From positions 93,930,001 through 93,994,000 of the forward strand of contig OX597818.1 of NCBI GenBank assembly GCA_951406725.2: a stretch of 64,000 nucleotides of DNA, written 5' to 3'. A model generated the notes under the pieces. The model did no database searches and was not told where the DNA came from. It saw only the letters and a program-made list of their open reading frames with translations. Source of the DNA: Octopus vulgaris (taxonomy: Eukaryota). A program made the translations under genes and the position numbers. Below, piece by piece: positions 8,303-52,454 of the stretch; position 1 is the first letter of the stretch, and each line of letters begins with the position of its first letter.

Positions 8303-10699
8303 TTAATTTATTCTTTTAAAGGTTTTAAGAACCGCGGGATCGGTACTCTTTGGTAAAGAACTGCGACGAGGATGAAATGAGGTGTCTGGCGCCCATGTAC
8401 GTTTTTTACCAAAAATACTGTGTACTTTATCTCGTAATTTGGTCGCTGCTTTTTTGAAGATACGACGACCCGCGCGGTTATGTGAAGAGGAGATTGGATG
8501 CCGTACATTTGATGCAATTCGTTCCAGTGAATCGCGATGTAGATATGATAGCTCTGGACTATGTAGTTGATGTGATCTAGTATCTTCCAGTGATTCTGGT
8601 GGTCGACTAGATGGTTGAAATGGCTCTACATTAATGTCATAGTCTGGTTGTTCAGTGGAGCGAAGGCGACGTGCTATTGCTTCCCATTGTGATCTAGTAA
8701 ATTTCAGATCTCCTAATTGACTATATTGCTGTGAACGTGAACGGTCATGCTTGGAATTAGATGGCTCTACATGAATGTGATAGTCTGGTACATATCGGGA
8801 ACTATGTGGTTGTTCAGTGGAGCGAAGGCGCCGTACTATTGCCTCCCATTGTGATCTAGTAAGTTTCAGATCTCCTAATTGACTGTATAGTTGTGAACGT
8901 GAACGGTCATGCTTGGAATTAGATGGCTCTACATTAATGTCATGGTCTAGTACATATCGGGAACTATGTGGTTGTTCAGTGGAGCGAAGGCGCCGTACTA
9001 TTGCTTCCCATTGTGATCTAGTAAGTTTCAGATCTCCTAATTGACTGTATAGTTGTGAACGTGAACGGTCATGCTTGGAATTAGATGGCTCTACATTAAT
9101 GTCATGGTCTAGTACATATCGGGAACTATGTGGTTGTTCAGTGGAGCGAAGGCGCCGTACTATTGCTTCCCATTGTGATCTAGTAAGTTTCAGATCTCCT
9201 AATTGACTGTATAGTTGTGAACGTGAACAGTCATGCTTGGAATTAGATGGCTCTACATGAATGTGATAGTCTGATACATATCGTGGAGGTCGTCTATCAA
9301 TTTTCAGTGCAGCTCCACGTTTGCGTAATGGTTTTACGGTATGGAAACATTCTGATATATATCGTGGATGTAGTCTCTCAATTTTCAGTGGAGCTCCACG
9401 TTTGCGTAATGGTTTTACCGGATGGAAATATTCTGATATATATCGCGGACTATGTTGTTGATGTGATCTAGTATGTTCCAGTGATTCTGATGGCCGACTA
9501 GCTGGTTGAAATGGCTCTACATTAATGTCATAGTCTGATACATATCGTGGAGGTCGTATATCAACTCTCAGTGCAGTTTTGTGTACGTGTGGTGGTCCTA
9601 CATTGTGGTGATATTCTGATACATATCGTGAAGTATGTGGTTGTGAAGTGACGTGAGAGCCCCGGTTTTTCAATGCCTTTCGTAATCCATCAATCTCGTA
9701 ATTGACTATATCCAGTGAATCTCGTAATTGACTATATTGCTGTGAACGTGAAAGGCCTTGCTTGGATTTTGGGCTTGCTGAATTATTATTATTCTGTAAA
9801 TATGAAACACTCCAACACCGAAGAGGCGCTGAAACTTTGCTTTCAGAAATTCTTCTATGAGGATAATTTGTTTTTCTTTCAGATCTGTAATATGACATGT
9901 CTACCACCGAAAGTCTGTATTCACATGACGACATACGGTGAGGATATGGTTTTGGTATACTGAGGTGTTGTTCGTGTGTTGTGAAATTTTGGCATTCCTC
10001 AAATGGTCTTCTAGTTGACGAAATTCCATCATTATTTTCTGGTTGTTCCTGCCTTGAACGTTTAGGAATATAGAACGAGCATGTTAAATTTGTCTTACTA
10101 TTTTGAATCCTTTCCGTGGCTGTATTAATGCGATGTGGGTTTATTCTTGATATGGAAGATATTTTTCCTCCTTTGATTATGTATTTTTTGTTCGTTGCAA
10201 AATTTTCCTCGTCTTCTTTTGGTGAAAAGTTATCTAATTCTGCGCTTCTCTTGTTCAATTTTACTGGATGTTTGTCACGGCAGACATCCTTTTCTCCATT
10301 CAGTGTCTTACACTCCAATTTGTTGTTTACATACATGTTCTTATCGTCTGCTACTTCACATACACATCTCTTAGTTTTCTCGTCTTTTGAATAGTCATGT
10401 TTTGCTGTTTCATCATCATCATTTAACTGGTTATTGTTTTGATCTTCCATAACATCTATTTGAATCGTTTCCATCACATCACCAATATGATTCTCAGTAT
10501 TATTTTCACGATCGTCGTCTCGAGAATCAATGTGTCCAGTATTTTCTTCTGTAAAATCCTCGCCTTCATTCAGTTCTGTAGTTTTGTGTAATCCCTCATA
10601 TAGAACATCTGGATATTGCGAATGGTTAGCCAATTTTTCGGTTTCGGAACAGAGGTTCTTATAACACTTCGAAAAAACATAACTCTCTGTGGTATTCAT
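8303..10699 (-). CDS. P1: intronless uncharacterised Ser/Arg/His-rich repeat protein, about 798 aa (ORF track extends to 10801)
   Basis: Long open frame; acidic N-terminus shared with P2, P4 and P5; four 54-aa (162-bp) repeats and two 27-aa repeats. Start placed at the MNTTE ATG conserved between paralogues. Confidence 0.8.
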   Translation of the reverse strand: MNTTESYVFSKCYKNLCSETEKLANHSQYPDVLYEGLHKTTELNEGEDFTEENTGHIDSRDDDRENNTENHIGDVMETIQIDVMEDQNNNQLNDDDETAKHDYSKDEKTKRCVCEVADDKNMYVNNKLECKTLNGEKDVCRDKHPVKLNKRSAELDNFSPKEDEENFATNKKYIIKGGKISSISRINPHRINTATERIQNSKTNLTCSFYIPKRSRQEQPENNDGISSTRRPFEECQNFTTHEQHLSIPKPYPHRMSSCEYRLSVVDMSYYRSERKTNYPHRRISESKVSAPLRCWSVSYLQNNNNSASPKSKQGLSRSQQYSQLRDSLDIVNYEIDGLRKALKNRGSHVTSQPHTSRYVSEYHHNVGPPHVHKTALRVDIRPPRYVSDYDINVEPFQPASRPSESLEHTRSHQQHSPRYISEYFHPVKPLRKRGAPLKIERLHPRYISECFHTVKPLRKRGAALKIDRRPPRYVSDYHIHVEPSNSKHDCSRSQLYSQLGDLKLTRSQWEAIVRRLRSTEQPHSSRYVLDHDINVEPSNSKHDRSRSQLYSQLGDLKLTRSQWEAIVRRLRSTEQPHSSRYVLDHDINVEPSNSKHDRSRSQLYSQLGDLKLTRSQWEAIVRRLRSTEQPHSSRYVPDYHIHVEPSNSKHDRSRSQQYSQLGDLKFTRSQWEAIARRLRSTEQPDYDINVEPFQPSSRPPESLEDTRSHQLHSPELSYLHRDSLERIASNVRHPISSSHNRAGRRIFKKAATKLRDKVHSIFGKKRTWAPDTSFHPRRSSLPKSTDPAVLKTFKRIN

Positions 10700-10773
10700 T
10701 CTGGTCACCTCAAATTGACTCTCAATGCAGAGAAATGAAACTAAATGGTTTAATAATGATTTCCTTTCAACTA

Positions 10774-10781
10774 TGACGTCA
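10774..10781. promoter_or_regulatory. Full CRE palindrome upstream of P1
   Basis: TGACGTCA, 75 bp from the ATG at 10699; same position in all paralogues. Confidence 0.65.
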
Positions 10782-10869
10782 TCAATGAATGTGACAGTCA
10801 TTTTGGCATCATTTATTATTATTATTATTATTATTATTATTATTATTATTATTATTATTATTATTATTC

Positions 10870-51118: not shown

Positions 51119-51208
51119 TATACGTATAACACTACTACTACTACTACTACTACTACTACTACTACTACTACTACTGCATGATGCCGAAATGATTGTCGCA
51201 TTTATTGA

Positions 51209-51216
51209 TGACGTCA
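51209..51216. promoter_or_regulatory. Full CRE palindrome upstream of P5
   Basis: TGACGTCA ending 72 bp before the ATG at 51288. Confidence 0.65.
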
Positions 51217-51287
51217 CAGTTGAAAGTAAAACAATAAATCATTTAGTATAATTTCTGTCCATTGAGAATCAATGTGAGGTGACCAGC

Positions 51288-52454
51288 ATGAATACCACAG
51301 AGAATGATAGTTTTTCGAGTTATCAACACCTCTGCTACCAACCTGATCAAATGGCTGACCATAATCAATATCAAGACAATCTAAATGAAGAATCAGACCA
51401 AACTACAGGAGATAATAATGATATGTATTCTGAAGACGACAGTCGTGAAATAACTGATGAAGATGACATTGGTGATGAGAAGGAAAGTCAAAACAACGAC
51501 CAGTTAGACGAAGATTTCTCATCAGAAGATGACTATCCAAAAGACGAGAAAGCTGAGATCTGTGTGTGTGAAGTAGCAGACGATGAGAACGGAGGTGAAA
51601 ATAACATATTGGAAAGTAAGACACACAATGAAGACGAGAATGTCAGTCTGGATAACATTACAGTTAAATTAAAGAGTGGAACGGCAGAATTTGATAAATC
51701 TGTACCAAACGAAGACGAGGGTAATTATGACACGAGTATGAAATATGCAATCGAAGGAGGGAAAATAAATACGATGTCAGACACTTACCCACACAATGTG
51801 AATAGTGATCTGGATAGATATCAAGACGGTGAATCATTTGTAATATATCGAATGTTTTATATTCCTAAATTTCCAAGGAAGCGGGAACCAGAATATGAGG
51901 TTGAAAACATCCCGTATACTGGTGTCTATGAACTTGAAAGACCGTACAGTCCGAGAGGTTTATTAGAACGTCGTACCCGCTCAATATCAGCGTCAGGACG
52001 TCGTATAAAGCTACCACGGGAACGTCATACCCATTCCATCCTGTTACCTGAACATCATTTATATAAACGTCAAACCAGGTTAACCAAACCACTGAAATAT
52101 CGCACTGCTTCAGTACCACGATATAGCTCTGGAGATACACCGAGACCCAGTCCTTTTACCATACGGTCCCCTAAAAACTGTGTTTTTGTTGAGGGTGAAT
52201 CACGTGTAAAACTTGCACCTTATATACAGCCTCCTGATCTCCAAGAAGATGGTCATGTGTCTGGTATGTCCGTAACTGGGACGTCTTTTCCAGGTTTTGC
52301 AGTCGATCCTATATCCGTGCCAGAAGCTAAGTCGAAATATAAAGCTTTGTTTCGAAAGTGGGATCCAGTGTTTTATAATGTCGATCTTCCACCATTTAAA
52401 CAAAAGATAACTGTTAGCGAAATGCCAGATATTAAACGACAGATCTTTCAATAA
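51288..52454 (+). CDS. P5: shortest, most divergent, unexpanded paralogue, about 388 aa
   Basis: MNTTEND...MADHNQY...CVCEVADD...IEGGKI...FYIPK aligns with P1, P2 and P4; single C-terminal KWDPVFY...EMPDIKRQIFQ module. Confidence 0.8.
   Translation: MNTTENDSFSSYQHLCYQPDQMADHNQYQDNLNEESDQTTGDNNDMYSEDDSREITDEDDIGDEKESQNNDQLDEDFSSEDDYPKDEKAEICVCEVADDENGGENNILESKTHNEDENVSLDNITVKLKSGTAEFDKSVPNEDEGNYDTSMKYAIEGGKINTMSDTYPHNVNSDLDRYQDGESFVIYRMFYIPKFPRKREPEYEVENIPYTGVYELERPYSPRGLLERRTRSISASGRRIKLPRERHTHSILLPEHHLYKRQTRLTKPLKYRTASVPRYSSGDTPRPSPFTIRSPKNCVFVEGESRVKLAPYIQPPDLQEDGHVSGMSVTGTSFPGFAVDPISVPEAKSKYKALFRKWDPVFYNVDLPPFKQKITVSEMPDIKRQIFQ

Follow-up and report, generated by a model that had tools for sequence, protein, structure and literature searches.

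A duplicated octopus gene family with reading frames under selection, drifting residues and a shared upstream cAMP-response element

Among described systems, those closest to the genes reported here are the primate testis families VCX/VCY, SSX and SPANX (PMC13616518) and the spermatid targets of mammalian CREM-tau (PMC10454534, PMC3091680). The former are clustered duplicates that include one inverted pair, with predicted disorder, a high ratio of nonsynonymous to synonymous substitution rates (dN/dS) and lineage-specific copy number. The latter include Prm1/2, Tnp1/2 and Odf1, compact genes with the full cAMP-response element (CRE), TGACGTCA, near their start; mouse CREM-tau binds this sequence (PMC10454534), and full CREs are cited near -45 (PMC3091680). 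Here we describe a gene family of Octopus vulgaris represented by five open reading frames (ORFs), P1 to P5, in a 64,000-nucleotide stretch of genomic DNA (contig OX597818.1, positions 93,930,001 to 93,994,000; hereafter the window) and by ten intact members genome-wide. The family shares the listed features of the primate testis families, and all 10 of its members carry, 61-85 nt before the ancestral start, a 16-base element, TGACGTCAYAGTTGAA, that includes a full CRE.

The resemblances have limits. No sequence homology to VCX/VCY, SSX or SPANX was found for the octopus proteins, which are much longer and are built of modular repeats; testis expression and sex linkage characterise the primate families. 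The octopus dN/dS is elevated, at about 0.8-0.9, without clearly exceeding 1, and the arms of the P1/P2 inverted duplication are 90-93% identical, whereas VCX/SSX-type copies are at least 97% identical (PMC13616518). The CREM-tau targets belong to mammals and encode unrelated products; for this mollusc both binding factor and tissue are putative. Reflectins (PMC9779258) are likewise cephalopod-restricted, clustered and assembled from repeat blocks, but their motif M/FD(X)5MD(X)5MD (PMC9779258) occurs in none of the ten octopus family members. Reflectins are also rich in Met and Tyr, whereas here Met is 0.8-2.1% and Tyr 1.8-6.8%, with Lys and Leu common. The label SRRM2-like, carried by P0011, the O. 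sinensis orthologue of P4, looks compositional: the family shares Ser/Arg/Pro-rich low-complexity tracts with SRRM2 and SR-related proteins. These proteins, however, combine extended runs of RS dipeptides with a cwf21 or RRM domain, whereas the longest RS run in the family is 2, no such domain was matched in Pfam and no homologue outside octopus is named. Protamines and protamine-like proteins are short and very rich in Arg and Lys, or have an H1 winged-helix core; the octopus proteins have 6-18% Arg+Lys, 388-1514 residues and no histone match in Pfam. The family falls outside reflectins, SR proteins, protamines and transposon ORFs.

An ORF scan recovered all five stop-free frames reported in the initial annotation, which are homologous to one another. 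P1 lies on the reverse strand; its frame is open over 8303-10801, and its likely start at 10699 gives 798 residues (8303-10699), as in database record P0002. On the forward strand are P2 (14197-16128, 643 residues), P3 (open over 25641-29822), P4 (40647-45191, 1514 residues) and the deep-branching P5 (51288-52454, 388 residues). For P3 a start at 25803 is likely, giving 1339 residues (25803-29822), with the ancestral ATG there reading ATA; it is one of three members, with U1 and B1 described below, whose ancestral start is missing or lies in another frame, with an in-frame ATG available further downstream. P1 and P2 form an inverted duplication (about 6765-10875 against 14022-17538). The description of these genes as intronless holds for the ORFs; a 5' non-coding exon may exist, and a single-exon mRNA is our inference. 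We do not favour the view that the pyrimidine stretch preceding the ATG is a splice acceptor, although it could be one.

The annotation had counted five members, but protein and element searches of the O. vulgaris genome found ten intact members and two broken fragments, and the copy counts across the 2.8 Gb are lower bounds. Genome protein search gave eight N-terminal regions: four in the window, two (U1, U2) within 13 kb upstream of it, and, elsewhere on this contig, two more (B1, B2) at 51.6 Mb. P3, whose N-terminal region is lost, is the ninth member, and the tenth, C12, was found through the 16-base element as an intact 662-residue ORF on contig C12 (G000:C12; L054:6985-8973, reverse strand). 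The C12 protein is 24% Asp+Glu, with acidic repeats of about 25 residues, C-terminal repeats of 15 residues and an RRVTF motif near its end, and shares about 30% identity with P5 in the common part. A retrocopy origin of C12 is disfavoured by the presence of the upstream element. Both fragments are broken and lack the element: a P3/P4-like copy at G000:C5:93922665-93923605 (L014), with Arg/Ser/Pro, TWDP and module C remnants, several stops and no match to the 16-base element, and a module C fragment at window 1968-2189 (forward strand), with stops and frame changes.

Neighbouring paralogues are 100% identical to records named Octopus vulgaris, and, across three database searches and one profile search, every homologue that bears a name is an Octopus protein, labelled hypothetical or SRRM2-like. 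The profile search of 1.84 billion representatives gave seven matches, the named ones only from Octopus; no relative outside the genus was named in any of these searches, in line with the lineage-specific family originally proposed. The orthologues P0005, P0007, P0013 and P0014 of other species keep their frames open. In O. bimaculoides the P5 orthologue has equal length and 311 of 388 residues identical (80%), and the first 460 residues of P4 are 83% identical to their orthologue; B2 is 73% identical to P0007, and the C12 orthologue P0014 has fewer repeats with a well-preserved core. Among members, N-terminal identities range from 40 to 92%. In a tree that omits P3 and places C12 on a long branch, P1, P2 and U2 are recent, and P4 and P5 group with their O. 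bimaculoides orthologues, so their duplications are older than the species split. Gene-identifier and topic searches of the literature, which did not cover the 2015 O. bimaculoides genome paper or the PMC9068888 supplements, found no description of the family, nor did its gene identifiers appear in the available parts of the supplements of PMC11202624 (files listed without a per-gene table) and PMC6341066. The family is real, unnamed and without a domain model, and its function is inferred.

The CRE-containing element, overlooked in the initial annotation, is the most informative pointer to the way these genes operate. In the window it was found by flank alignment and exact search at 14115-14130 (P2), 25706-25721 (P3), 40565-40580 (P4) and 51209-51224 (P5) on the forward strand, and, with a palindromic CRE, at 10766-10781 on the reverse strand, 82 nt before the P1 ATG. 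In P1 and P3 it sits inside the longest ORF, i.e., the frame opens upstream of it. The 5' flank alignment showed TGACGTCA in all nine members then known, and nine of the ten such octamers in the 244 kb examined belong to family genes. An exact search of the 2.8 Gb genome with TGACGTCAYAGTTGAA returned 11 matches, against 3 for the reversed control. Ten precede family members, including the C12 gene overlooked by protein search; at the eleventh, on C3, no family match was found.

Across the ten members 15 of 16 columns of the element are invariant. In neutral simulations on the eight-member tree, such a window arose at that site in 0 of 100000 runs and anywhere in 130 nt in 7 of 100000. An upstream in-frame extension of the protein, MTVTFIDDVIVE, was considered as the cause of this conservation and rejected: in 6 of 10 members a stop interrupts the element's frame ahead of the main ATG, and the single variable site alters the encoded residue. 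With the frame broken in those six members, it is as DNA that the element is conserved. The CREB/CREM consensus is TGACGTCA (PMC10454534, PMC3091680), and one pKID exon of the CREB/CREM family scores above the Pfam cut-off, on G000:C1. The element is probably a CRE-type promoter, which a CREB/CREM-type factor would bind. Two further short stretches were observed. CATTGA, about 20-30 nt before the start (window 40617-40624 and homologues), is invariant in all ten members and is a candidate initiator or 5' untranslated region (UTR) element. In the eight-member coding alignment the only better-kept stretch is the 18 nt encoding CEVADD (window about 40983-41000 and homologues), invariant in 8 of 8 aligned members, silent positions included; besides encoding a protein motif, it may function at the DNA or RNA level.

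The reading frames themselves are under selection to remain open, as judged from tests that leave out P3 and C12. Neutral simulation over a tree length of 1.05 kept all eight N-terminal regions stop-free in 0 of 5000 runs for each of three root sequences. A codon-blind alignment of these regions contains 21 gap events, of which 18 are divisible by three, and the remaining three all fall in P5 and sum to 90; in seven non-independent pairs, gaps divisible by three number 24 of 35 in coding sequence and 10 of 74 in flanks. The amino acids, by contrast, drift almost neutrally. Depending on kappa, dN/dS over 28 pairs spans 0.63-1.10 or 0.80-1.42, and a likelihood grid peaks at 0.8-0.9 and rejects 0.6, which bears out the fast evolution first suspected. 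Some module C pairs exceed 1, but over 58 codons only, and positive selection is not claimed. The initial annotation had named dN/dS near 1 together with frameshifts as grounds for abandoning its proposal; the ratio does approach 1, and the listed contig differences on P4 include no stop or frameshift. A functional coding family is very likely.

The members draw on a common set of protein modules. At the N-terminus lies an acidic region bearing EVADD, GGK and FY.P motifs; the others are a helix unit (RDSLEL, to which the SQW unit is related), tracts of Arg/Ser/Pro, the TWDPDTSR unit, and module C (SGSCF..L..W..FY..MP), in which a short helix is predicted. The common N-terminus initially described is present in four of the five window ORFs; in P3 the region is gone after the first residues, and the EVADD, KGGK and FY.PK motifs with it. 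The RDSLELA and SQWEAIVRRLR units, previously treated as separate, have the 5' part of their DNA in common and appear to form a single module family. B2 has one copy of nearly each module. The SQW unit is amplified in P1 (four units), P2 (two, with three RDSL(E/D) units) and U2; P4 amplifies RDSLELA (eight units, 41631-42272) and Arg/Ser/Pro tracts (33-residue units, 42843-43390) and has four TWDPDTSRW units; module C is amplified in P3 (eight copies) and B1 (three), and C12 has new acidic repeats. P5, thought to lack modules, ends in one diverged copy of module C. Unit spacings are 54 residues in P1 and P2, 108-126 and then 198 and 203 in P3, and 29-30 in P4, and coding tandem repeat periods (162, 342, 90/177 and 99 nt) are divisible by three, as had been noted. 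Different modules have thus been amplified in different members, consistent with the independent repeat expansion proposed at the outset, and repeat numbers also differ between orthologues. Some residues persist nonetheless: F, L, W and P are invariant in 13 of 13 module C copies, and EVADD/EEAD and the NDDLDRFQ..YLIY..FY.P core of C12, P0014 and P5 are kept over deep splits.

All ten proteins are predicted to be disordered, as the initial annotation had supposed. FoldIndex is below zero in 80-100% of windows, and AlphaFold gives a mean predicted local distance difference test score (pLDDT) of 36.8 with one confident helix, at RDSLELARLRW. No signal peptide or membrane segment was predicted in any of the ten. 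N-termini are mostly acidic and most members have basic Ser/Arg/Pro tracts; residues 701-900 of P4 have a net charge of +46, and RxxS and SP motifs in P4 exceed shuffles. The proposed phospho-regulation stands weakly, in that protein kinase A (PKA)-type motifs are clearly above shuffles only in P4 and U1, with P2 borderline. PP1-docking and nuclear-export-like motifs were also considered; PP1 motifs exceed shuffles only in C12, and neither is claimed. The earlier failure to recognise a known domain was confirmed: Pfam gave only weak or repeat-inflated matches, CCDC85 on P1 being rejected for want of a passing stretch. The PDB sequence search gave a best E of 0.24 for module C and no match for the N-terminal profile, and Rfam gave 0 matches. 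ESM Atlas gave no usable match for the N-terminal region or module C, a blank that is not informative, and AlphaFold models with pLDDT of 61 and 37 are too poor for fold comparison.

Public sequencing contigs bear on P4 only, for which four runs were aligned to 39800-47800. P4 was found in 6 of 24 listed runs, none of the six recorded as RNA, among them X1, X2, X4 and X7. Of these, X2 and X4 are taken to be RNA from the modest size of their contig sets (62 and 68 million letters; about 3000 million were read for X1). Their contigs cover most of the P4 ORF, the listed pieces without gaps; of the 15 joints listed none falls within the ORF, 411 more lying outside those listed. The 27 listed coding differences from P4 comprise 10 silent, 17 missense and no stops. 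Near AATAAA at 45251-45256 (forward strand), a candidate polyadenylation signal of P4, listed contigs from two studies come to an end, that of X2 at 45272 and that of X7 at 45253, and X1 continues past it. Taken together, this pattern weakly suggests an unspliced transcript. Database model P0011 has a 3' skip and ends early; the listed contigs show neither feature. One contig shows 28-29 differences in 291, which suits the P1/P2/U2 group; depth cannot rank genes. The other 18 of the 24 runs, presumed to be RNA, contain 0.00-0.03 of the words, which was not read as tissue restriction; likewise, some flank bins are covered by X1 and by neither X2 nor X4, a difference that was not used to place transcript ends.

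Several features of the surroundings were also recorded. As initially described, the transposon ORFs scanned in the window are fragments (Tc1, 150 residues; reverse transcriptase pieces, 124 and 197 residues). About 36 kb upstream an uninterrupted 346-residue Tc1/mariner-type transposase ORF (L011:3414-4454, forward strand; DDE_3, HTH_Tnp_Tc3_2) is present, so at least one transposon ORF in the vicinity has escaped decay. A very high-copy short interspersed repeat occupies window 46830-47065, 346-531 and 30915-31114 and has huge depth in all four aligned runs. Window 4495-4938 is a tandem array of 33-bp units, with a further stretch in opposite orientation and no long ORF. About 25 kb from B2, G000:C5:51631837-51633830 (L026) is a long coding-like minisatellite with several open frames and a unit resembling PKEIKEGAERDQRG.

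By analogy with CREM-tau targets and testis families, we propose that these are CREB/CREM-driven single-exon genes for disordered multivalent scaffolds of spermatids, an explanation we hold tentatively and put somewhat short of an even chance. A CREB/CREM-type factor would bind TGACGTCA in the proximal promoter and switch on the ten duplicated genes together, each giving an mRNA of one exon, with ORF and short UTRs. The proteins would be made and kept inside the cell, given the lack of a predicted signal or membrane segment, and would act through charge blocks (an acidic N-terminus and, in most members, the basic tracts) and through two short predicted helices present in many copies: that of the RDSLEL/SQW units and, in module C, the L..W..FY helix. 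Selection would then fall on frame, charge pattern and copy number more than on exact residues. Phosphorylation of Ser/Arg tracts may modulate how the proteins build sperm accessory structures or granules; outer dense fibres and a fibrous sheath are present in the sperm of O. vulgaris (PMC11753710). Taken on its own, expression in the male germ line appears evenly balanced, and, given the germ line, a structural scaffold is the somewhat better bet.

A number of points weigh against this proposal. Tissue, translation and factor binding are all putative, and neither X2 nor X4 is recorded as RNA. The X2 contig starts at 40501, 64 nt upstream of the CRE, and that of X4 at 40614, and contigs cannot mark transcription starts. 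A dN/dS of 1 is not clearly rejected, lying 0.6-1.9 log units below the free fit. Three members (P3, B1 and C12) are net acidic, and enrichment of PKA-type motifs is confined to 2-3 of 10 members, with repeat copies non-independent; that all ten perform the same biochemical task is therefore doubtful. Finally, the evidence for CREM control of spermatids is mammalian, no mollusc case being found in literature searches, and CREB is also active in somatic tissues (PMC10454534, PMC3091680).

This last point underlies a serious rival, in which the same genes and promoter serve another cell type, such as neurons with cAMP- or activity-dependent induction, gland, skin or oocytes, as disordered scaffolds like those of other cephalopod novelty families. 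Coleoids do have clade-specific arrays such as reflectins and suckerins (PMC9068888), and the sequencing runs carry no tissue label. Yet the combination of near-neutral change, duplication and disorder resembles VCX and SSX (PMC13616518), the reflectin motif is absent, and without a signal peptide the products are not secreted from a gland; we consider a somatic or oocyte role possible but doubtful. It is also conceivable that the exact protein hardly matters, the frame being kept only against harmful truncations or mRNA decay, or the product acting by bulk charge and length. The dN/dS values, the missing N-terminal region of P3 and the varying repeat numbers all fit such indifference, but strict neutrality of the frame and a dN/dS of 0.6 are both rejected and short motifs survive deep splits, so we judge it unlikely.

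Sperm chromatin proteins of protamine-like or transition type, condensing DNA through Arg/Ser tracts, would account for the strongly basic repeats of P4 and their RxxS and SP motifs, but not for modest Arg+Lys content, great length, mostly acidic N-termini, three net acidic members and the absence of a histone domain in Pfam, and are very improbable here. Most remote is that the ORFs are remnants or domesticated parts of transposons or endogenous viruses. They do lack introns and lie in transposon-rich surroundings, but they match no transposon domain in Pfam, number at least about 10 copies in 2.8 Gb and were duplicated along with about 1 kb of flank, and 0 of 32 pattern-matched viral stretches proved related.

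For evolution, the family offers a clean case in which frame and putative promoter are conserved while residues drift, and C12 illustrates that a regulatory 16-mer can reveal a family member that protein search overlooked. Should spermatids use the element as a CREB/CREM promoter, a molluscan counterpart of the mammalian CREM spermiogenesis programme becomes testable. Octopus species mate multiply and store sperm, and spermatid use, if true, would make these genes candidate species-specific sperm proteins and sources of germ-cell stage markers for an aquaculture species. More broadly, and more doubtfully, the family may be an octopod-born sperm-building regulon, in which a CREB/CREM switch has been fixed over ten duplicates while their proteins, released from constraint on sequence, diversify by each amplifying different short binding helices. 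If so, it would extend CRE-driven spermiogenesis beyond vertebrates and provide a natural series in which selection sees motif number and charge, not sequence.

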